Program-made: the position numbers and the translations under genes
In this document: piece by piece, positions 1,972 through 20,583 of the stretch
How the letters are laid out: each line of letters begins with the position of its first letter
Position numbering within the stretch: position 1 is the stretch's first letter
Notes under the pieces: model-generated
Database searches by the model: none
Seen by the model: the letters and a program-made list of their open reading frames with translations, nothing else
Told to the model about the DNA's origin: nothing
Origin: an uncultured Bacteroidota bacterium
GTDB taxonomy: Bacteria > Bacteroidota > Bacteroidia > Bacteroidales > B18-G4
NCBI GenBank assembly: GCA_963793485.1
Contig: CAWCAB010000001.1
Location: 270,534-334,533, forward strand
Length of the DNA: 64,000 nucleotides
Direction: 5' to 3'

Positions 1972-3846
1972 GTGCGGAGCAGAAAATCTCAGATTTTAAA
2001 GAAGAACTTTCTGACAGCTGGCATAGTCCCTGTCATACTGATACTTACTGTAGCAGGAATTGCTGCCTATGCAAACTCCTTTGATGCTTCTTTTCATTGG
2101 GATGACCTGGAGCAGATCGTTGGTAACGATGAAATTCATGACCTATCCACGTTTTCTGAGCCTTCAGAATGGTTTGCTGTTAAGAAGCGCCCTGTATCAA
2201 GGTTCAGCCTGGCCCTGAACTGGAGCCTGGGCGGACAAAATGTGCTCGGTTACCATATTGTTAACCTCATCTTGCATATTCTTGCTTCGCTGATGGTTTT
2301 TCTGATCACAAGATATACCATATCTTCTTTGCCGGAGGATGAACCCTACGACCGAAGAATGTTATGGACGGTTTCTGTCTTTGTTGCTTTGCTCTTTCTG
2401 CTGCACCCTTTGCAAACAATGGCGGTGACCTATATTGTTCAACGAATGACCGTTCTGGCAGCTTTGTTTTATTTGCTTGCAGTTTATTTATACGCCAGGG
2501 GCAGGATGGCCTATCTCAAGGATGGAAAAACTTTGCGGTCAGCCATTTTGATCCTTCTGGCTGTGTTTTCAGGATTGCTGGCCTTGCTGTCGAAACAAAA
2601 TGCCGTGACTTTTCCGGCAGCATTCCTGCTCTATGAGTTGTTCTTCATCAGGAAAAGGGATGGAAAGCTTTGCAGAAAATATGCCGGCACTTATTTAGTC
2701 GTTCTCACAACAGGATTTCTTGCAGTTTTATTCTCCGGATTTCTCCCGGCCGAGACAGAAATGTATTCAAGGATTGAGTATTTCAGCGCCCAGCTTGGGG
2801 TGTTTCATAAATATCTGCTTTTAATACTCTTTCCCATCAGTCAGAATGCCGATTATTATATCAATCCCGGGCATCCGCTGATCGGGCTTTACCAAATTAT
2901 TGGTATTATGCTGGTATTGGCTCTGTTATTACTGGGAGTACTGCTCTATAAGAGAAACCGACTTGTATCATTCGGGATCTTCTGGTTCTTCATCAGCATG
3001 TCGATTGAATCAGGATTGATTCCTATAAAGGACATTATGATGGAGCATCGCATTTATCTCCCAATGTTCGGGGTATGTATGATCGTAGCAGGTATTGTCC
3101 TGCGTTATGTACCATATTCTAAGATCAAATACTTTTATGCGATAGGATCTGTTATTTTGATCCTTCTGGCCCTGGGCACCTATAACAGGAACAAGGTATG
3201 GGCGTCAGAGATCAGCCTCTGGGAAGATTGCCTTGAAAAGAATCCGCAGAGTGCCAGGGCGATGAACAACCTGGGCTATGCCATAAAAAGCAAAGCAATG
3301 CAAAATCCCTATCCTGATGTCAGGCGGCAGGAATTGATAAGGTCCATTGCATATTTTAGCAGGGCTACCGGTGGAGATACCATCTTCACAGATGCCTATC
3401 TCAACAGGGGTCTGGCATATATGGAACTTCAGGAGTATGATAAAGCACTGGCAGATATTAAGCTGGTTGAGAGCGATAAGCCCAGGAAACGTTTCCTGCG
3501 ATATTATCTGGAAGGGATCATCCATGCCCGAAAAGGAGATATTGGACATGCGCGGAATCTTTTTGACGATGCTATCAGCTTGAATTCTGATTTTGCTTTA
3601 CTTTATACCTGGAGAGGTCTCGTACTGACGGAACTTAAGGAAGATCAGGCTGCAATTGATGATTTTCAACGATCATTGGAGATTGATCCCACGCAAACCA
3701 TTTTGTATATTAATATTTCACAGTTGAATTACAATCTGAAGAACTATGCCCAGGCTCTATACTGGATCACGCAGGCAAAAGATGAAGGACATAGTGTAGA
3801 TCATGAATACATGGATGCCCTTGAGGAAGCATTTCAAGATAAATAA
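1972..3846 (+). CDS. GT-C-fold membrane glycosyltransferase with C-terminal TPR repeats (TMTC/DUF1736-like)
   Basis: 624 aa with a GTG start. Many N-terminal TM helices, with an acidic first-loop motif FHWDDLEQIVGND. The C-terminal ~200 aa consist of TPR-like repeats (AYLNRGLAYMELQEYDKALADI...). Confidence 0.6.
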   Translation: MRSRKSQILKKNFLTAGIVPVILILTVAGIAAYANSFDASFHWDDLEQIVGNDEIHDLSTFSEPSEWFAVKKRPVSRFSLALNWSLGGQNVLGYHIVNLILHILASLMVFLITRYTISSLPEDEPYDRRMLWTVSVFVALLFLLHPLQTMAVTYIVQRMTVLAALFYLLAVYLYARGRMAYLKDGKTLRSAILILLAVFSGLLALLSKQNAVTFPAAFLLYELFFIRKRDGKLCRKYAGTYLVVLTTGFLAVLFSGFLPAETEMYSRIEYFSAQLGVFHKYLLLILFPISQNADYYINPGHPLIGLYQIIGIMLVLALLLLGVLLYKRNRLVSFGIFWFFISMSIESGLIPIKDIMMEHRIYLPMFGVCMIVAGIVLRYVPYSKIKYFYAIGSVILILLALGTYNRNKVWASEISLWEDCLEKNPQSARAMNNLGYAIKSKAMQNPYPDVRRQELIRSIAYFSRATGGDTIFTDAYLNRGLAYMELQEYDKALADIKLVESDKPRKRFLRYYLEGIIHARKGDIGHARNLFDDAISLNSDFALLYTWRGLVLTELKEDQAAIDDFQRSLEIDPTQTILYINISQLNYNLKNYAQALYWITQAKDEGHSVDHEYMDALEEAFQDK

Positions 3847-3854
3847 GGAATATA

Positions 3855-4577
3855 TTGAAAACACTCATCATCATACCGGTATACAATGAATCAGCCAGCA
3901 TAGGAGGGATCCTGGATGAGATTGCCGAAACTTTCCCCCAATATGATATGCTGGTGGTGAATGATGCCAGTACCGACGAGAGCGGTCGAATAGCAGCAGC
4001 CAATGGCAATGCTGTAGTCGTGAACCTGCCATTCAACCTGGGAATAGGAGGGGCGGTCCAGACCGGCTTCAAGTATGCCAGGGAAAATGACTATGAAATT
4101 GCCCTTCAGTTCGATGGAGACGGGCAGCACCAGGTAACGGAGATTAGTAAACTAATTCCTGTGATCGAAGAAGGGAAGGCGGATGTTGTGATTGGTTCAC
4201 GTTTCAATAAGAAAACCGAAGGTTTTACGACCCATTCTTTGCGTCGTGTCGGCATATGGATCTTCCAGTGGTTTAGCTATCTGATGATCGGACAGAAGAT
4301 CACAGACCATACATCCGGATTCAGGGCTTATAACCGAAGATCGTTCTGCTTCCTGGCCAATCATTATCCTACTGATTATCCGGAGCCGGAAGTGGTTATA
4401 CTGCTGGGCCGAAACCATTTTGTGATTACAGAGGTCTTTACTCAGATGCTTCGCCGCCAGGGAGGTGTGTCTTCCATACCTGTTGCGAAAGGGCCTTACT
4501 ATATGGTTAAGGTCTTGCTCGCCATGTTCATGGCTTCTATCAGATCAAGGATCATCACGGATGATGAAAAACTATAA
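3855..4577 (+). CDS. family-2 glycosyltransferase, polyprenyl-phosphate sugar synthase type (GtrB/DPM1-like)
   Basis: TTG start. GT2 motifs IIIPVYNES, VVNDASTDES, QFDGDGQH and VVIGSRF. Confidence 0.85.
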   Translation: MKTLIIIPVYNESASIGGILDEIAETFPQYDMLVVNDASTDESGRIAAANGNAVVVNLPFNLGIGGAVQTGFKYARENDYEIALQFDGDGQHQVTEISKLIPVIEEGKADVVIGSRFNKKTEGFTTHSLRRVGIWIFQWFSYLMIGQKITDHTSGFRAYNRRSFCFLANHYPTDYPEPEVVILLGRNHFVITEVFTQMLRRQGGVSSIPVAKGPYYMVKVLLAMFMASIRSRIITDDEKL

Positions 4578-4579
4578 TT

Positions 4580-4951
4580 ATGGGAGAAATCAGCCAAATA
4601 CAGATCGTTGCCGTAATAGTGAGTATCTCACTGTTTCTTTTTATCATGTATCTGATAAGAAGCCAGCGGCTGAAGGAGGAGTATTCACTTTTGTGGATAT
4701 TCTTTAGCCTGGTATTTATAGTATTCGCCTTCTGGAGAAGTGGTCTCGATTACATTTCTGATTTTCTGGGCGTAGCCTATCCGCCGGCAGCCCTGTTTAT
4801 GATCCTCCTCATGGCTATCTTCTTGATCCTGATCGAGTTCTCAATGATCATTAGTAAGCTGTCAGATAAAAACAAGTCACTTGCACAGGAAATAGGATTG
4901 CTTAAGCAAAGACTTAGGAAGATCGAAGAACGAGGATCGAGTAACGAGTAA
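4580..4951 (+). CDS. small membrane protein, DUF2304-like
   Basis: 123 aa with about 3 TM helices plus a coiled C-terminal tail. Starts 2 nt after the GT2 stop. The last codons (EERGSSNE*) are encoded by the heptamer array. Confidence 0.6.
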   Translation: MGEISQIQIVAVIVSISLFLFIMYLIRSQRLKEEYSLLWIFFSLVFIVFAFWRSGLDYISDFLGVAYPPAALFMILLMAIFLILIEFSMIISKLSDKNKSLAQEIGLLKQRLRKIEERGSSNE

Positions 4952-5028
4952 CGAACACCAGTATCCATTATCTATTATCTAGGATCTAGGATCCAGTATC
5001 CAGTATCTAGGATCCAGTATCCAGGATC
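4924..5028. repeat. heptanucleotide tandem array, 15 in-phase units
   Basis: cgaagaa cgaggat cgagtaa cgagtaa cgaacac cagtatc cattatc tattatc taggatc taggatc cagtatc cagtatc taggatc cagtatc caggatc. Spans both convergent stop codons (4949-4951 and 5007-5009). Confidence 0.95.
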
Positions 5029-6104
5029 TCATCATACAACTCAACGTATTGCTTCACAGTATCCTCAAAGTGAAACTTCCTGATCGGACTGTTTTCCCAT
5101 TTACCAGCGTAAGCTATTTCGAGGGCATCTTTTAAGCCTTTTCCGTCCTGCGTTTTCATTATGATATATTGGCCCGAGACAACCTCTTTCAGGGCACCTC
5201 GGCCGGATGAGATAAGGGGTATGCCCATGGCAATAGATTCTGCGGCAGCAAAGCAGAAACCTTCACTGTATGATGGAATCATAACACAGGAGGATGAGAG
5301 CAAAGCTTGTTGAAGCTCATCGTAGCTCAGGTTATGGAGTAGCGTAAAGCGATCTTCCGGGATGCTTTGCAATTCCTTTTTGATTGTTCTCAAAAACCCT
5401 TTTGGGCGTGTGGGGATGATCATTTTTAAGTGGGCATCGGGATGCTGCTCAAGGAAAGCAGGTGCAGCTTCCAGGATGAGGTCTAGTCCTTTTGAAATGC
5501 CCAGGCGGCCGAAGTAGGTGAATGCGAACTTCGTGGGCGGTGAATATTGGATGGTCCGAAAGTCATTATAATTCAGTCCATTATATATCCTGGTGATCTT
5601 GTCTTTCTTTATGCCTGCCTGTCTGAGGCTTTCGGCTGTATAATCCGATACAGCGATGAATCGGTGAAAGCCCAGGCGTAGGATAAACCATTCGTAGGCG
5701 TAGTAAAGACGTTTACTGATGGTTCCGGCATATGGAAGCCTGAACCAGAGTTTGCCCCAGGCTTCATGGAAGGTGATCAGAACTTTTTTACCGTATATCC
5801 ATCCGGCAAGCCTGGCCGGAAATGCGGCATTGTAAGATGTTGTGTGAATGATGTCACAGTTTTTAGCTTCACGGAGCATGCCAAAGATCCCAAAGAAGGT
5901 AAAAACAAAACGGGAAGATACATTGAGACGTTTAACTTCAACGCCGTTGATGATCTCTTTTTTTGGCAGTTCTTTACTAAAACGTGTGGTGATCACTTTT
6001 ACCGAATGGCCTTCTTCGACAAGCTTTTCAGCAAGCGATTTGAACAGCTTCTCAATACCCCCTATGTTGGGGTAATACAGCTCGAGTATGAACAGTATTT
6101 TCAT
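5007..6104 (-). CDS. glycosyltransferase family 4 (group 1)
   Basis: 365 aa. GT4-type PSYSEGFCFAAAESIAMGIPLI motif. The start overlaps the upstream GT4 stop in an ATGA overlap at 6101-6104. Confidence 0.85.
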   Translation of the reverse strand: MKILFILELYYPNIGGIEKLFKSLAEKLVEEGHSVKVITTRFSKELPKKEIINGVEVKRLNVSSRFVFTFFGIFGMLREAKNCDIIHTTSYNAAFPARLAGWIYGKKVLITFHEAWGKLWFRLPYAGTISKRLYYAYEWFILRLGFHRFIAVSDYTAESLRQAGIKKDKITRIYNGLNYNDFRTIQYSPPTKFAFTYFGRLGISKGLDLILEAAPAFLEQHPDAHLKMIIPTRPKGFLRTIKKELQSIPEDRFTLLHNLSYDELQQALLSSSCVMIPSYSEGFCFAAAESIAMGIPLISSGRGALKEVVSGQYIIMKTQDGKGLKDALEIAYAGKWENSPIRKFHFEDTVKQYVELYDEILDTGS

Positions 6105-7207
6105 TCCTTCAGAAGCTTTTTAATTTCACGGTCGAATTCCCTGGCATAATTATCCCAGCTAAATTTTGCAGCCTGTATTCCTGCTTTGTCTGACAATTGC
6201 TTCCTCAGGCCTTCCTCATGCACTATTCTATACATGGCATCCGCCATTTCATTGGGATCAGCAGGATCAAAATATATGGCCCCTTCTCCGCCTACCTCAG
6301 GCAGGCTCGAAATATTGGACAGCAGACAGGGAGTGCCACAGCTCATAGCTTCCACTACCGGCAAGCCGAAACCTTCATACAGGGAAGGAAATACAAAGGC
6401 TTCGGCCTGGCTGTAGAGTGAGGCCAGTGTATCACGCTCAATATATCCGGTTAAGACGATGTCGGCCTTGAATGGGTGGCCGGAAAGTGCTTCATAGAAA
6501 GACTTGCTTTTCCATCCTTTTCCTCCGGCAATCACCAGCTTATGATCGGAGACTGAACGCTCCTTAAAAATTGTAAAAGCCTCCAGGAGCCTGTTCAGGT
6601 TTTTTCTGGGTTCTATTGTTCCTGCATAGAGAATATAGGGATTCCCTGAAGTGTATTTTCTTACAACAGATTTATTGGCGGAAAAGCCCATGCTTTCATC
6701 CCTTCCCAGGTAGATCTGGCTCGTCTTCTGCTTTGCTTCCGGCATGTATTGTGTAAGGTCCTGGCTTGTATTGGCTGAGTTGGTAATGATCAGAGATGCC
6801 CTTCTTATTATACCTTTCAGAAATACTTTTTGCAGGAACTGGGAGTGAAACCTGTGTAGCTTTGGGAACAGGATAGGGGTGAGGTCGTGAACCACTGTTA
6901 CACGCTTCATCTTCTTTGGAAGGTTAAAAGGTCCAAAGTGCGCCGGTTCCACCACAACATCGGCTTGTAGTTTTTTCAGCGTGCGAGGGATACCCACAAA
7001 CATGCGCCAGGCAGAATAACCGGGAAAGCTGTGATTCTTAACAACGATTTGCCTTTCAGATGGGAATAGATCATCCTTTTTTCTTCTCAATATGAAGTAT
7101 TCACCATGCTCATCTATCCCAGCCAGGTGCGTAACCAGGTTCCTGGTGTAGTAATGTATGCCCGCCTGTTGGTTGTCGAGGGGGTCAGCTAGGATAATGA
7201 TGCGCAT
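6101..7207 (-). CDS. glycosyltransferase family 4 (group 1)
   Basis: 368 aa with PSLYEGFGLPVVEAMSCGTPCL (E-x7-E region). Confidence 0.85.
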   Translation of the reverse strand: MRIIILADPLDNQQAGIHYYTRNLVTHLAGIDEHGEYFILRRKKDDLFPSERQIVVKNHSFPGYSAWRMFVGIPRTLKKLQADVVVEPAHFGPFNLPKKMKRVTVVHDLTPILFPKLHRFHSQFLQKVFLKGIIRRASLIITNSANTSQDLTQYMPEAKQKTSQIYLGRDESMGFSANKSVVRKYTSGNPYILYAGTIEPRKNLNRLLEAFTIFKERSVSDHKLVIAGGKGWKSKSFYEALSGHPFKADIVLTGYIERDTLASLYSQAEAFVFPSLYEGFGLPVVEAMSCGTPCLLSNISSLPEVGGEGAIYFDPADPNEMADAMYRIVHEEGLRKQLSDKAGIQAAKFSWDNYAREFDREIKKLLKE

Positions 7208-16449: not shown

Positions 16450-17817
16450 ATGAAAACAAAATTACTTCTGTTACTTACATTTATGATTTATGTAAACACC
16501 CATGCTCAATTCGGCCCACAACAAATTATAACAACAAATGCAGTTGGGGCAATATCAGTTTACGCCACAGATATCGACGGAGATGGCGATATGGATGTGC
16601 TTTCTGCTTCTCAAAATGATGATAAAATAGCCTGGTATGAAAATACCGATGGCCAAGGAAGTTTTGGCTCGCAACAGATTATAACAATAAACGCAGATAA
16701 AGCAATATCGGTTTACGCCACAGATATCGACGGAGATGGCGATGTGGATGTGCTTTCTGCTTCTCAAAATGATGATAAAATAGCCTGGTATGAAAATATC
16801 GACGGAGAAGGTAATTTTGGTTCACAACAAATCATTACAACAAATGCAGATTATGCAGGATCTGTATACGCCACCGACATAGACGGAGATAAGGATATGG
16901 ATGTTCTTTCTGCTTCTCTTAATGATTCTAAAATAGCCTGGTATGAAAATATCGACGGACAAGGTAATTTTGGTTCACAACAAATTATAACAACAATTGC
17001 AGATGGGGCATTTTCAGTCTACACTGCCCATATAGATGGAGATGGCGATATGGATGTGCTTTCTGCCTCTTTTAATGATGGTAAGATAGCCTGGTACGAA
17101 AATACTGACGGACAAGGTAATTTTGGTTCACAACAAATCATTGCAACAAATGTAGCGGGAGCAAGACCCGTTTACGCTATTGATATAGACGGAGATGGCG
17201 ATATGGATGTGCTTTCTGCTTCTTATTATAATGATGAAATAGCCTGGTATGAAAACATTGACGGACAAGGTAATTTTGATTCGCAACAAATCATTACAAC
17301 AAATACAGATGGGGCCTATTGGGTTCATGCAAGCGATATAGACGGAGATGGCGATATGGATGTGCTTTCTGCTTCTGTTAATGATGATAAAATAGCCTGG
17401 TACGAAAATACCGATGGACAAGGGAGTTTTGGTTCACAACAAATCATTACAACAAATGCAGCTGAGGCAATGTCAGTTTACGCCACTGATATAGACGGAG
17501 ATGTTGATATAGATGTGCTTTCTGCTTCTTTTGATGATGATAAAATAGCCTGGTATGAAAATTTAACAACTTTGGCTATAAATCAAAACACATTAATAAG
17601 TTTTTCAATTTATCCAATACCAACAACAGGTGCTTTAATTGTTAAATCAAAAGCAAGCATTGCTCAAATAGAAATTTATAACAAGTTTGGTCAATTAATG
17701 ATGTCAAAATCAAACGAAAATAAGATTGATATATCTACCTTAAGTCAGGGTTTGTATTTCTGTAAAGTTAAAGATGAAAACGGTGTTTCTGGAATAAAAA
17801 AAATAGTGAGGGAATAG
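16450..17817 (+). CDS. T9SS cargo: seven-blade FG-GAP/VCBS beta-propeller protein
   Basis: 455 aa. Seven 51-aa repeats of the form FGSQQIITTNADxAxSVYATDIDGDGDMDVLSASxNDDKIAWYENTDGQGN. C-terminal T9SS CTD (FSIYPIPTTGALIV...GLYFCKVKDENGVSGIKKIVRE). Confidence 0.85.
   Translation: MKTKLLLLLTFMIYVNTHAQFGPQQIITTNAVGAISVYATDIDGDGDMDVLSASQNDDKIAWYENTDGQGSFGSQQIITINADKAISVYATDIDGDGDVDVLSASQNDDKIAWYENIDGEGNFGSQQIITTNADYAGSVYATDIDGDKDMDVLSASLNDSKIAWYENIDGQGNFGSQQIITTIADGAFSVYTAHIDGDGDMDVLSASFNDGKIAWYENTDGQGNFGSQQIIATNVAGARPVYAIDIDGDGDMDVLSASYYNDEIAWYENIDGQGNFDSQQIITTNTDGAYWVHASDIDGDGDMDVLSASVNDDKIAWYENTDGQGSFGSQQIITTNAAEAMSVYATDIDGDVDIDVLSASFDDDKIAWYENLTTLAINQNTLISFSIYPIPTTGALIVKSKASIAQIEIYNKFGQLMMSKSNENKIDISTLSQGLYFCKVKDENGVSGIKKIVRE
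16510..17575 (+). repeat. seven tandem 153-bp intragenic repeats (propeller blades)
   Basis: Long near-identical DNA stretches recur every 153 bp, e.g. gatatcgacggagatggcgatatggatgtgctttctgcttct...aaaatagcctggtatgaaaat. Confidence 0.9.
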
Positions 17818-18057
17818 TTGCATACGTTAGAGTTTCGCACGAGTGGGCTTATAGTATTAATCATCATCCCAGGTATTCTCATACACATGGTTTGATCGAA
17901 GAAAAGAGGAAAGGGAGGATTTTGTTTCAAGAGGTCTTAATTCTCTTGAAATCCCCGCCAACAGGATGACAGTTTTTGCTAAATGGGTTTGCTGGCCAGT
18001 AAGAATAGCAGCCAGTTTGGCATTGATTAGCCTTAATTTTAATTTTTCTCAGTTTTA

Positions 18058-18089
18058 TTTGTCCATAATAAATTGTTTATGTACTTTTG
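18058..18089 (+). promoter_or_regulatory. candidate Bacteroidetes sigma-A promoter upstream of tRNA-Ser
   Basis: TTTG at 18058-18061, 20 nt of spacing, then TACTTTTG (TAnnTTTG) at 18082-18089. About 90 nt upstream of the tRNA. Confidence 0.4.
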
Positions 18090-18132
18090 CCCCTCGCAAA
18101 ATAGAGGTCCGGGGATGGGGAAAGAGGCGTGA

Positions 18133-18174
18133 GGATTTTTTGGATTTTGATTTTTGGATTTTGGATTTTCCAAG
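18133..18174. repeat. heptanucleotide array immediately 5' of tRNA-Ser
   Basis: ggatttt ttggatt ttgattt ttggatt ttggatt ttccaag. Confidence 0.85.
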
Positions 18175-18177
18175 TTT

Positions 18178-18267
<90 letters not shown>

Positions 18268-18273
18268 GTAAAA

Positions 18274-18301
18274 GTTTTGGGTGTTGAGTTTTGGGTTTTG
18301 A
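18274..18301. repeat. heptanucleotide array immediately 3' of tRNA-Ser
   Basis: gttttgg gtgttga gttttgg gttttga. Confidence 0.85.
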
Positions 18302-18472
18302 ATTATTATCAATTAACTTATACCTTAAACTCTAAGCCGATCGTTCTTTAACAGGTACATTTAAAATTGTACATACAGAATACAGAATTGTAAATTATTC
18401 GGGGTATAGCCCTTCGGCATGCTCAGGATAAACTCCGTCCGGTTAGCGGAGTAAAATAAATAACGAATAGTA

Positions 18473-18547
18473 CGGGGTATAGCGCAGTCCGGTTAGCGCA
18501 CCTGCTTTGGGAGCAGGGGGTCGTAGGTTCGAATCCTACTACCCCGA
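18473..18547 (+). tRNA. tRNA-Pro (anticodon UGG)
   Basis: Acceptor stem CGGGGTA/TACCCCG. D arm GCGC-AGTCCGGTTA-GCGC. Anticodon stem-loop CCTGC-TTTGGGA-GCAGG. T arm GTAGG-TTCGAAT-CCTAC. Discriminator A, with no encoded CCA. Confidence 0.95.
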
Positions 18548-18558
18548 CAACAAACAAA

Positions 18559-18589
18559 AGCCTCACACGATAGTGTGGGGCTTTTTTTA
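18559..18589 (+). terminator. rho-independent terminator after tRNA-Pro
   Basis: gcctcacac / gtgtggggc hairpin (one U-G pair) followed by ttttttt. Confidence 0.75.
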
Positions 18590-18658
18590 TGCCCGGAAAC
18601 TGCAAGCTTGCTTGTAAGTTTTTGGGCATGAAAAAAGACCATAAGGAGCGAAGCGAGT

Positions 18659-19172
18659 GGGCTTTTGTTTATTGTACCCCCCCCAAGGGATCAGCGAGCG
18701 AAGCGAAGCTAATCCTACCCGAGAAGTGCCTAAAGTATTGGAGTGCCTAGAGTGCCTAAAATGAAGGAGGGCCTTTTGTTGTTGTACCCCCCCCAAGGGA
18801 TCAGCGAGCGAAGCGAAGCTAATCCTACCGAGAAGTGCCTAAAGTATTGGAGTGCGCTAGAGTGCCTAAAGTTAAGCAGTGGGCTTTTGTTGTTGTACCA
18901 CCCCCCAAGGGATCAGCGAGCGAAGCGAAGCTAATCCTACCCGGGAAGTGCCTAAAGTTTGGAGTGCGCTAGAGTACTTAGAGTTTTGCGGGCTTTTGTT
19001 GTTGTACCACCCCCCAAACGGATCAGCGAGCGAAGCGAAGCTCATCCTACCGAGAAGTGCCTAAAGTACTTGGAGTGCCTAGAGTGCCTAAAATGAAGCG
19101 AGTGGGCTTTTGTTTATTGAGCCACTTCCCAAGGGATCAATTTCACGAAGTGGAGTTAATCCTACTACCCCA
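18659..19172 (+). repeat. tandem array of a ~110-nt unit (four full units of 110/112/109/114 nt plus a divergent partial fifth)
   Basis: Units start at 18659, 18769, 18881, 18990 and 19104. Consensus: gggcttttgttgttgtaccccccccaagggatcagcgagcgaagcgaagctaatcctacccgagaagtgcctaaagtattggagtgcctagagtgcctaaaatgaag. Unit lengths are not multiples of 3. Confidence 0.95.
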
Positions 19173-19184
19173 ACTTGAATATCA

Positions 19185-19216
19185 AGGACTTACGAGCAAT
19201 CGTGAGTCCTTTTTTA
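19185..19216 (+). terminator. rho-independent terminator distal to the repeat islet
   Basis: aggacttacg (19185-19194) pairs with cgtgagtcct (19201-19210), followed by a T-run. Confidence 0.7.
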
Positions 19217-19779
19217 TTTCCGGTGTCAACATGGTGTCAGCTACCTGACAGCAAACTTCCTGTTTCCGACCACTTTTCTTTCCGATAACAGTACTGCCGT
19301 ATAAATCCCATGGGGATAACCTATACGCTATTCCATATTAACAAATTCCCCTATAACAAAGTAATACACATATTTATTCCTCACAATATATAACGAATCT
19401 GAACCTCTGTTTTTATATACTGAATCATTAATTTGAAGAAAATTGTTAAGGGAGGTGCATATTCCTGTCAAACTGAGCAGGTCATTCCTGGCCAAATTGA
19501 GTAGTCTTTTTCAATTATAGCAGATTACAGATATTGACGATAACCAGCTAAATGTCAAATAAGAAATTGCTTCATCTAAACAGGAGTTACATGCTTTGCT
19601 AAAACAGGAATCAGCTGTTTTCCTTGATAGGATTTTCCAGACAGTAAACTTATTTGATTTTTAAACCAACTTTTTGGCGTCGATTGGAAAGATTGACTGC
19701 ACAATCTTGAAATTCGCTTTAAGATTTTGTACCTTGTCAGGTTAATGGAGAAGTCATGAGCCTTCAATAGACAGTACTT

Positions 19780-20583
19780 ATGTATACTAAAAAGCCATCG
19801 GATCAAGAACTTAGAAAGATTTCCCGGGAAGTCCGGGCTGAAATTATCAGGAGCCTTGCTGAAGCTGGCTCAGGGAACACCGGAGGCTCTCTTGAATTGG
19901 CCGATATTTTCACCTGCCTGTATTTTGGTGTTATGAAACACCATTGCCAGGATCCGGGTACTAAGGAACGTGATCGCCTGATCCTCTCCATTGAACATGT
20001 TTCTTCTGTACTGTACGCTGCCATGGCCATGGCAGGATGCTTCTCTCGGGAGGAATTAAATACCCTAAGGGAACTAGGATTACCTGGCAACAAGGACTCC
20101 TCAGTATCAGCAGGACAAGGCTTATCTTTAGCTATTCAATTGGCCATCAATGCCAGAAAGGAGAACAAAGATTACCATATCTACAGCATACTCAAAGATG
20201 GGGACCTGGATGAGCGCATCGTACGGAAAGCAGCCATGAAAGCCGCTCATAACAATCTCAGCAAGCTAACGATTCTCCTCAACAGGAATAGAGCACCAAA
20301 CGATGACAAGGCGGTAGGTGTAAAGAGCATTGAACTAACTACCGAAAAATGGAAATCTTTTGGCTGGCATGTGATCCATTGTGATGGCCATGTGCATGAA
20401 GAGGTGTTTTCTGCCTATGAAGAAGCCATAAATACCAATGAAAAACCGAGTGTGATCCTGGCAGATACAATCATGGGAAAAGGTGTTTCCAGTATAGAGG
20501 GAGACCAATACTGGCAAAGCAAGGCCCCTTCGAAAGCAGAAGCGGAGGATTTCCTCAAGGAAATAGAAAAGGGTATCTCATGA
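19780..20583 (+). CDS. transketolase N-terminal-subunit homolog, catalytically degenerate, with no partner C-terminal subunit
   Basis: 267 aa, colinear with split transketolase N-subunits. SGNTGGSL replaces SGHxGGSLS, LSIEHVSS replaces LSKGH, GNK replaces GHP, KDGDLDER replaces GDGExxEG. Confidence 0.6.
   Translation: MYTKKPSDQELRKISREVRAEIIRSLAEAGSGNTGGSLELADIFTCLYFGVMKHHCQDPGTKERDRLILSIEHVSSVLYAAMAMAGCFSREELNTLRELGLPGNKDSSVSAGQGLSLAIQLAINARKENKDYHIYSILKDGDLDERIVRKAAMKAAHNNLSKLTILLNRNRAPNDDKAVGVKSIELTTEKWKSFGWHVIHCDGHVHEEVFSAYEEAINTNEKPSVILADTIMGKGVSSIEGDQYWQSKAPSKAEAEDFLKEIEKGIS

Follow-up and report, generated by a model that had tools for sequence, protein, structure and literature searches.

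A palindromic tRNA-trailer module and an islet of tandem units behind tRNA-Pro in an uncultured Bacteroidota bacterium

Described repeats and small RNAs behind stable-RNA genes

The rtT repeats of Escherichia coli were reportedly sequenced around 1980, and to our knowledge they still have no accepted function and have not been described as an integrative element. Behind tyrV they form 3.1 copies of a 178-bp unit, each ending in GAGTAATCCTTCCCCCACCACCA, the 3' end of tRNA-Tyr, and the rtT region is annotated as a small RNA (sRNA), RttR. Here we compare these repeats with an islet behind a tRNA-Pro gene in a 64,000-nucleotide (nt) stretch of an uncultured Bacteroidota bacterium (assembly GCA_963793485.1, contig CAWCAB010000001.1, positions 270,534 to 334,533; hereafter the window), where an original prediction from sequence had noticed tandem units bounded by a direct repeat of the tRNA 3' end. 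We lean, with moderate confidence, towards reading this islet as the product of local amplification and partial decay of an RtT-like tRNA-trailer module, with no inserted element. In structure and position the module corresponds, by analogy, to the rtT repeats of E. coli tyrT.

The likeness has several parts. Both systems stand directly 3' of a tRNA gene and on its strand, both consist of tandem units (178 bp with 3.1 copies in E. coli, 110 nt with 4.4 copies in the window), both are structured, non-coding and variable in copy number, and in both the units end in GAGTAATCC followed by the 3' strands of the cognate tRNA's T-stem and acceptor. They differ in the pairing of that end: in RtT the end copy pairs along its whole length with a complement further upstream (GGGGAAGGAU : AUCCUUCCCC) and so mimics the acceptor/T-stem minihelix, whereas the window module has no such outer helix. 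The Bacteroidota module further differs in carrying a terminator-bearing palindrome, which RtT lacks, and in encoding no CCA, and the internal units of the window, unlike those of RtT, are truncated and hold a cluster of 9-mers.

The Rfam model RtT (RF00391, gathering score 45) matches three metagenome contigs outside Bacteroidota: L067 (64.2 bits), L035 (50.2 bits) and L061 (37.3 bits). The matches lie at 876-1003, 2974-3109 and 3321-3452, respectively, behind tRNAs other than E. coli tRNA-Tyr, apparently Gln(TTG) in L067 and L061 as read by eye from the anticodon loop. Two of the three contigs are G+C-rich (0.65 in the L067 match, 0.66 in the L061 stretch), each of the three has a cognate end copy, and the L067 trailer is duplicated. 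Little useful literature surfaced on rtT or on tRNA-linked repeats in general.

Two other systems invite comparison. As far as we know, the dual-terminator sRNAs of E. coli rrn operons contain no copy of the 3' end of the upstream RNA and are not palindromic. These sRNAs (rrA, rrB and rrF; PMC8144298) lie between the first and second intrinsic terminators; they share with the window a short non-coding interval between two terminators at the end of a stable-RNA operon, and are single-copy genes and not tandem repeats. Elements integrated into tRNA genes, including cis-mobilizable ones (PMC4383910, PMC5704250, PMC7563491), likewise show a direct repeat of the tRNA 3' end that bounds a precisely deletable interval and leaves the tRNA unharmed, but the interval in the window shows no integrase of the L003 type, no cargo and, apart from one doubtful match, no viral counterpart, and its architecture is conserved across different tRNAs.

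The trailer module and its recurrence behind other tRNAs

In Bacteroidota the module comprises, in order, the tRNA end, a palindrome of ~125 nt that contains a terminator (T1), a linker, a GGATCA...TAATCC hairpin (P5) and a copy of the final ~17 nt of the tRNA, after which comes the next terminator. All its parts in the window lie on the + strand. The tRNA-Pro(TGG) gene (18473-18548; ARAGORN and Rfam, 71.3 bits) encodes no CCA, and its last 17 nt, from the T-loop AATCC to the discriminator plus 1 (18532-18548), are the first copy of the direct repeat. The core that follows (18549-18675), an imperfect palindrome of ~125 nt by its inverted repetition, folds in minimum-free-energy (MFE) predictions as a four-way junction closed by helix P1, in which the trailer (18549-18562) pairs with an anti-trailer (18660-18675). 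Its arms are the T1 hairpin (stem 18560-18568 / 18573-18581, seven T residues at 18582-18588; from the sequence and the folds), a long hairpin, HP (18589-18629), with a G-CUUG-C tip and an extension formed by pairing of the T1 U-tract with an A-run, and a weak hairpin, H2 (~18637-18660). A C-rich linker (18676-18687) leads to P5 (18688-18715; GGATCA...GCGAAGC...TAATCC), which is conserved and whose inner pair covaries across loci, and to the first degenerate tRNA-end copy, AATCCTACCCGAG (18711-18723).

This layout recurs well beyond the window. An 18-mer scan of species-representative genomes returned mostly chance matches and one true relative, L003, a Cyclobacteriaceae metagenome-assembled genome that carries the tRNA-Pro 3' half, T1, the hairpin, a unit-like stretch ending in GGATCAGCGAAGCTAATCCTACCACGCCGAC and a second terminator. 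A metagenome scan for GTTCGAATCCTAC as T-arm, a gap of 145-175 nt and TAATCCTAC gave 34 loci, against ~3-4 expected by our back-of-envelope estimate; the pattern fixed one T-arm sequence and demanded a second end copy. At 26 of the 34 loci, the eight bases that follow the second CCTAC agree at seven or more positions with the acceptor 3' strand of the locus's own tRNA, an agreement that the obvious chance matches lack. Because the pattern did not demand this agreement, a cognate tRNA 3'-end copy ~170 nt behind a tRNA gene is a recurrent arrangement in bacterial genomes. In Bacteroidota the layout of a tRNA, ~160-190 nt and the tRNA's own 3'-end copy from the T-loop AATCC onwards stands behind at least four tRNAs. 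Twelve loci with the window's architecture (L040/L062, L044, L048, L050, L053, L051, L054, L058, L059, L064 and L065) sit behind tRNA-Pro, Val, Met and Ser, identities that were read by eye from the anticodon loops and not called by ARAGORN or Rfam.

The number of modules varies between loci, as the original prediction had proposed for relatives of this site, and so does the form of the units (L054, L064 and L058). There are three full modules in L064, two in L054 and one each in L003, L040 and L048; relatives hold one to three modules and no empty site was seen among loci collected with a pattern that itself demanded a module. The comparison is closest with L054, the orthologous locus, where tRNA plus T1 are 83% identical to the window and the right flank is 88% identical over window positions 19156-19240, from the end copy through T2 and beyond; between these flanks L054 has two full modules in 337 nt, against 626 nt in the window. 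Behind tRNA-Val in L058 (oriented, ~2693-2830), a 67-nt truncated unit of linker, P5 and tRNA-end copy has been tandemly amplified, an event that is independent of the amplification in the window and similar in kind.

Folding supports a common architecture. When folded independently, 12 of the 16 modules give one MFE structure, in which P1 closes a four-way junction with T1, HP and H2 as arms, the HP tip is usually G-CUUG-C, and the T1 U-tract pairs with an A-run at the HP base. The linker is often C-rich, and is so in the tRNA-Pro loci; the P5 loop is GNA or GNRA, and the tRNA-end copy after P5 is unpaired. In tRNA-Pro modules only GGAT:ATCC (4-5 bp) pairs, leaving the TAC-acceptor part free, and the tRNA-Val loci L044 and L058 show a partial extension of the end-copy pairing. 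The palindrome arms are specific to each locus. In the window, one core arm is identical to the reverse complement of the other at 46 of 60 positions (z = 11.6), and across loci the arms are ~75-85% identical to the reverse complement over 55-60 nt; z lies between 7 and 16 for 11 of the 14 modules.

Covariation is observed in the helices that could be aligned. Since a MAFFT alignment failed to register P1, H2 and the HP base, pair counts cover T1, the HP tip and P5, and P1 was tested by duplex energies. Over the aligned columns 91% of cells are standard pairs, and double-sided changes number 48, where shuffles give 13.8 and none of 500 attains 48; this signal collapses when the partners are slid by one to three columns. 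For P1, cognate trailer/anti-trailer duplexes average -21.1 kcal/mol, compared with -11.8 (standard deviation 4.1) for non-cognate ones, and in 13 of 14 modules the cognate partner ranks first, or second to a close relative only. Folds of the tRNA-sense strand are more stable than those of its antisense by 5.1 kcal/mol (11 of 14 modules, p = 0.017).

L064 (oriented, ~1530-1800) also has, directly after its last module, a second tandem array of ~88-nt units (TTTCGCCTCCAGCC.CTGGCAGTGG.CGCAAGCGAAAACAATAAACCACTATATGCCAGGATGTTAGGCA) with a GC-rich hairpin.

The array in the window

The window holds one full module (18532-18723), four truncated units of ~110 nt and a terminal part that is the ancestral one. 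The full module scores 140 bits over 18532-18724 with model R1, whose training set includes this sequence. The array begins 100 nt past tRNA-Pro on the same (+) strand, and Tandem Repeats Finder (TRF) gives 4.4 copies of period 110 with 86% matches over 18650-19139, in agreement with an alignment of units of 109-114 nt; unit spacings are 110, 112, 109-110 and 114-115. Each unit comprises an H2 remnant with the anti-trailer (GGGCTTTTGTTGTTG), a C-rich linker, P5 and a degenerate tRNA end, and all but the terminal unit add a 9-mer cluster. T1 and HP are missing from the truncated units, which R1 matches at model positions 118-174 only, and a ~40-nt cluster of three AGTGCCTAA sites replaces ~100 nt of trailer, T1 and HP. 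The terminal partial unit (19095-19174) has anti-trailer, linker, a long perfect P5 variant with a GAA loop (19134-19162) and the intact tRNA-end copy AATCCTACTACCCCAAC (19158-19174), which is exact over 14 nt where internal copies are degenerate (AATCCTACCCGAG). It is followed by terminator T2 (19184-19217), a 12-bp stem with a T-run that closes the dual-terminator interval begun by T1.

Much of what the original prediction had described here is borne out. On their + strand, the 64 kb contain the 14-nt direct repeat AATCCTACTACCCC in exact form just twice, at 18532-18545 and 19158-19171; allowing up to two mismatches adds one match, on the minus strand, and none of 100 shuffles gave three such matches. 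With one mismatch the repeat extends to 17 nt (18532-18548 / 19158-19174). The weaker similarity claimed for ~10 nt further upstream did not survive, with 3 of 26 ungapped matches, a chance level; the stretch preceding the 14-mer forms the 3' side of the conserved hairpin. Both predicted terminators are present: T1, which a simple terminator scan did not list on the + strand, is found in the sequence and in every fold, and T2 is called by the scan at 19184-19211 plus the T-run. The ~110-nt units, and a degenerate tRNA end in each, were also found as described, the 20-mer CGAAGCGAAGCTAATCCTAC occurring five times at up to three mismatches, within the array only, where 0 were expected. Little self-complementarity holds for the units as a whole, which fold like shuffled sequences (z = -0.4 to +0.4), and misses the one conserved hairpin; the purine-rich strand is real as an excess, albeit a slight one (54%). 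The prediction's satellite derived from a tRNA end comes closest of its options to the evidence, with the amendment that the origin would be an amplified trailer module.

An independent view of the array comes from L001, a Logan short-read contig from run ERR11523668. Its positions 1-100 match the window at ~19085-19185 and show the same right junction; it carries one single-nucleotide polymorphism further downstream and ends inside the array, so the copy number given here is that of the window's own assembly. Short reads are expected to break at a repeat.

Under the reading of the islet as amplified and decayed trailer modules, the array may have grown by unequal recombination or slippage between GAAGCGAGTGGGCTTTTGTTTATTG blocks and tRNA-end copies. 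As the block GAAGCGAGTGGGCTTTTGTTTATTG is common to unit 1 and the terminal unit (u1 and u5 in the unit alignment), it is a likely substrate for unequal exchange. A polymerase that reads through T1 would transcribe the interval up to T2, for which the rrn dual-terminator sRNAs (PMC8144298) offer a precedent. Processing nucleases acting on the tRNA could then release trailer RNAs, as described for rtT. Any function would probably reside in the full module, with the short units as by-products.

Several results weigh against this reading. Transcription of the array may be slight, as T1 looks efficient as a terminator, and a regular expression for Bacteroidetes promoters (TTTG...TAnnTTTG) has no match on either strand in 18280-19320. 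The short units show no excess of folding structure. G-U outnumber A-C combinations by 30:4 in the sense orientation, yet they do so by 19:4 in antisense, an algorithm bias that keeps this strand test from being decisive. Close relatives show uncompensated changes (L050 versus L053), and module 2 of L054 has lost P1, which would fit weak constraint or a palindrome maintained in DNA better than a selected RNA. Loci whose tRNA lacks a module were invisible, because the search pattern demanded a second end copy. The RF00391 model has no match in window positions 17500-20000 at E <= 10 or in ten Bacteroidota loci at E <= 5, although it does match L067 and L035, which served as positive controls, so homology with RtT is not demonstrated.

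The units likewise fall into no known family when the window region and ten related loci are scanned with Rfam, and the Bacteroidota version of the arrangement goes unrecognised by current RNA family libraries. The combination of a tRNA, a structured trailer, a cognate 3'-end copy and tandem repeats is a layout found behind many tRNAs in several phyla. What was a curiosity of E. coli becomes a comparative problem, namely whether processing, a decoy role, recombination or replication error at terminators keeps the end copy in place.

Other explanations and neighbouring features

A serious rival to the trailer-module reading, although we consider it improbable, is an origin at the DNA level, in which the islet is neutral satellite DNA and both palindrome and array are by-products of replication errors at a tRNA terminator, acting neither as RNA nor as DNA. 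The locus-specific arms speak for it, since their complementarity could persist by intramolecular template switching and not by selection; second modules and short units decay, and copy number varies freely among relatives. It accounts less well for the conservation, across divergent loci and different tRNAs, of the apical HP AAGCTTGCTT (a G-CUUG-C tetraloop) and of the GGATCA/TAATCC hairpin, or for the C-rich linker of the tRNA-Pro loci. In L048, H2 has changed on both sides compared with T1 and still forms a hairpin, and the better folding of the tRNA-sense strand points the same way.

An integration remnant, either an integrase-less cis-mobilizable element or stacked scars with attL at 18532-18548 and attR at 19158-19174, is close to the first thought of the original prediction and now looks unlikely. 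The T-loop of a tRNA is a classical crossover sublocation. It is also where the direct repeat in the window starts, and tRNA-Pro is a live integration target in the relative L003. Close relatives do not share stable synteny downstream of the locus, and a 5' pseudo-tRNA copy upstream in L048 ends in the T-loop; the T-loop boundary, the unstable synteny and the L048 copy are the reasons why we retain the possibility at all. Displaced tRNA fragments are known to mark island ends (PMC4383910), and that background also counts on this side. Against integration, one internal architecture stands behind four tRNAs, each with its cognate end copy. The element in L003 lies outside the module: its tyrosine integrase (4586-5851, + strand; SAM-like and Arm-DNA-bind_5 domains) adjoins a displaced tRNA-Pro 3' half (4440-4500), its identity block starts in the anticodon stem and not in the T-loop, and since the module is on the chromosomal side of that displaced half, it belongs to the tRNA locus and not to the element. 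Among 2.9 million viral contigs, P5 plus the tRNA-Pro end, and the whole geometry, are essentially missing (module patterns gave 0 matches and 1 doubtful one). As the prediction had noted, the interval has neither integrase nor cargo; a tblastn search with one query, the L003 integrase, has no match in the 64 kb, and the interval has no coding capacity. Serial integration and excision, which it had also offered, gives way to tandem duplication, which better fits the regular period and high similarity of the units. For the finding of genomic islands, the locus cautions against taking every displaced tRNA 3' fragment for an att site.

Some observations on the flanks stand beside this discussion. 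In L003, ATTAGTAAACA occurs twice as a direct repeat near the integrase gene and TGGTTTACCATT twice past the second terminator, and both resemble arm-type sites. Contig L070 is 94.7% identical to the window over a transketolase gene and 300 nt upstream of it, and homology is lost to the left of window position ~19484 (L070 position 1170), ~270 nt downstream of T2; left of this breakpoint L070 has a different gene and no tRNAs. The flank of L054 diverges from the window after ~19240.

Still more doubtful, in our view, is that the module is an undescribed class of tRNA-linked structured RNA, analogous and not homologous to RtT, with a functional single-stranded end copy, whose leader and trailer could pair with each other once the tRNA has been excised, giving a split molecule that resembles a tRNA and might be a decoy or sensor for tRNA-binding enzymes, and whose AGTGCCTAA clusters might titrate a phage regulator. 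The idea draws on an incomplete 5' copy of tRNA-Pro that stands shortly before the real gene (18400-18452, + strand), composed of CGGGGTATAGC, a 26-nt insert with a hairpin ending in ATAAACTCC, and a D-arm-like hairpin (CTCCG-TCCGGTTAG-CGGAG). Such 5' pseudo-copies are conserved in three lineages, represented by the window, by L064 with two copies (minus strand, ~1139-1062 and ~1015-963) and by L048, where the copy lies ~104 nt upstream of tRNA-Pro and runs via an anticodon-arm-like hairpin to GTAAGTTCGAACC. The L048 copy stops in the T-loop, the same place where the end copies downstream start; the real tRNA thus has a 5' pseudo-half on one side and a 3' pseudo-end on the other.

Least probable of these alternatives is an array of protein-binding sites, a reading that applies to the 9-mer clusters: four sets of one plus two AGTGCCTAA sites would bind a DNA-binding regulator, possibly phage-related. 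The array would then serve for decoy or titration, or it would descend from a phage regulatory region that became fused to the tRNA module. The cluster of unit 1 (18725-18759, + strand) reads AGTGCCTAA, 8 nt, AGTGCCTAG, AGTGCCTAA, and equivalents lie at 18834-18869, 18947-18975 and 19056-19091. Nine exact or one-mismatch copies of the 9-mer are packed into 370 bp, and the 64 kb contain one other exact copy. The clusters have no counterpart in the terminal unit or at any related locus, and being absent from all related modules they are best seen as a lineage-specific addition that was amplified later; those of units 2 and 3, two of the four, are already degenerate, which counts against binding sites.

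Viral contigs provide the other support for bound sites, from a scan that was seeded with the tandem 9-mer itself, so that its matches were chosen by searching for this very motif. In the IMG/VR phage contigs L012 (3578-3611) and L025 (1882-1915), a near-identical intergenic 40-nt arrangement, AAGTGCCTAAAGT(N)TTGGAGTGCCTARAGTGCCTAAAGTT, sets one site, 7/8 nt and two further sites beside structural genes; the two phages are related, with a 230-residue protein 90% identical. Contig L016 has the 9-mer 14 times, in intergenic positions and in reverse order (site-site-7 nt-site). In L016/L023 four dispersed clusters (2970-3003, 3211-3244, 6988-7005 and 8572-8589 in L016) stand upstream of portal, head-tail adaptor and other genes with no family hit, and also between terminase and adaptor genes. 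The orientation of the sites relative to genes differs among the phages, no candidate binding protein was identified, and at least one of the phages has a strong ribosome-binding site, AGGAGG, of a kind not usual in Bacteroidota hosts. The resemblance could reflect a shared DNA-binding protein, or a coincidence favoured by the design of the search.

The remaining candidates were dropped: a miniature inverted-repeat transposable element (no dispersed copies, all R1 matches with E < 1e-5 in 249 kb being tRNA-linked, and palindrome arms that differ from locus to locus), an antisense sRNA and 9-mers as host promoters (after the promoter expression found nothing in 18280-19320), a sigma-54 site in the 9-mer (spacing wrong by inspection), a phage attP (a tRNA-Pro-like core is missing from all viral loci that have 9-mer clusters), a unit derived by decay from a whole tRNA or a tRNA 3' half (local alignment to the tRNA gave only AATCCTAC and the terminator-like GGGCTTTT) and a coding repeat (the unit lengths, as first remarked, do not divide by three, and reading frames fall out of register).

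Upstream of tRNA-Pro lies a tRNA-Ser(GCT) gene (18178-18267; ARAGORN and Rfam), with T/G-rich heptamer repeats (TTTTGGA, GTTTTGG) on both sides, at 18133-18169 and 18273-18301; L064 also has G/T-rich repeats past its tRNA-Ser. Genes near the locus encode proteins sorted by the type IX secretion system (T9SS), which places the organism in Bacteroidota. One of them (16450-17817), which encodes an FG-GAP-repeat protein with a T9SS sorting domain, contains a 153-nt tandem coding repeat at 17030-17562 (3.5 copies, 83% matches).

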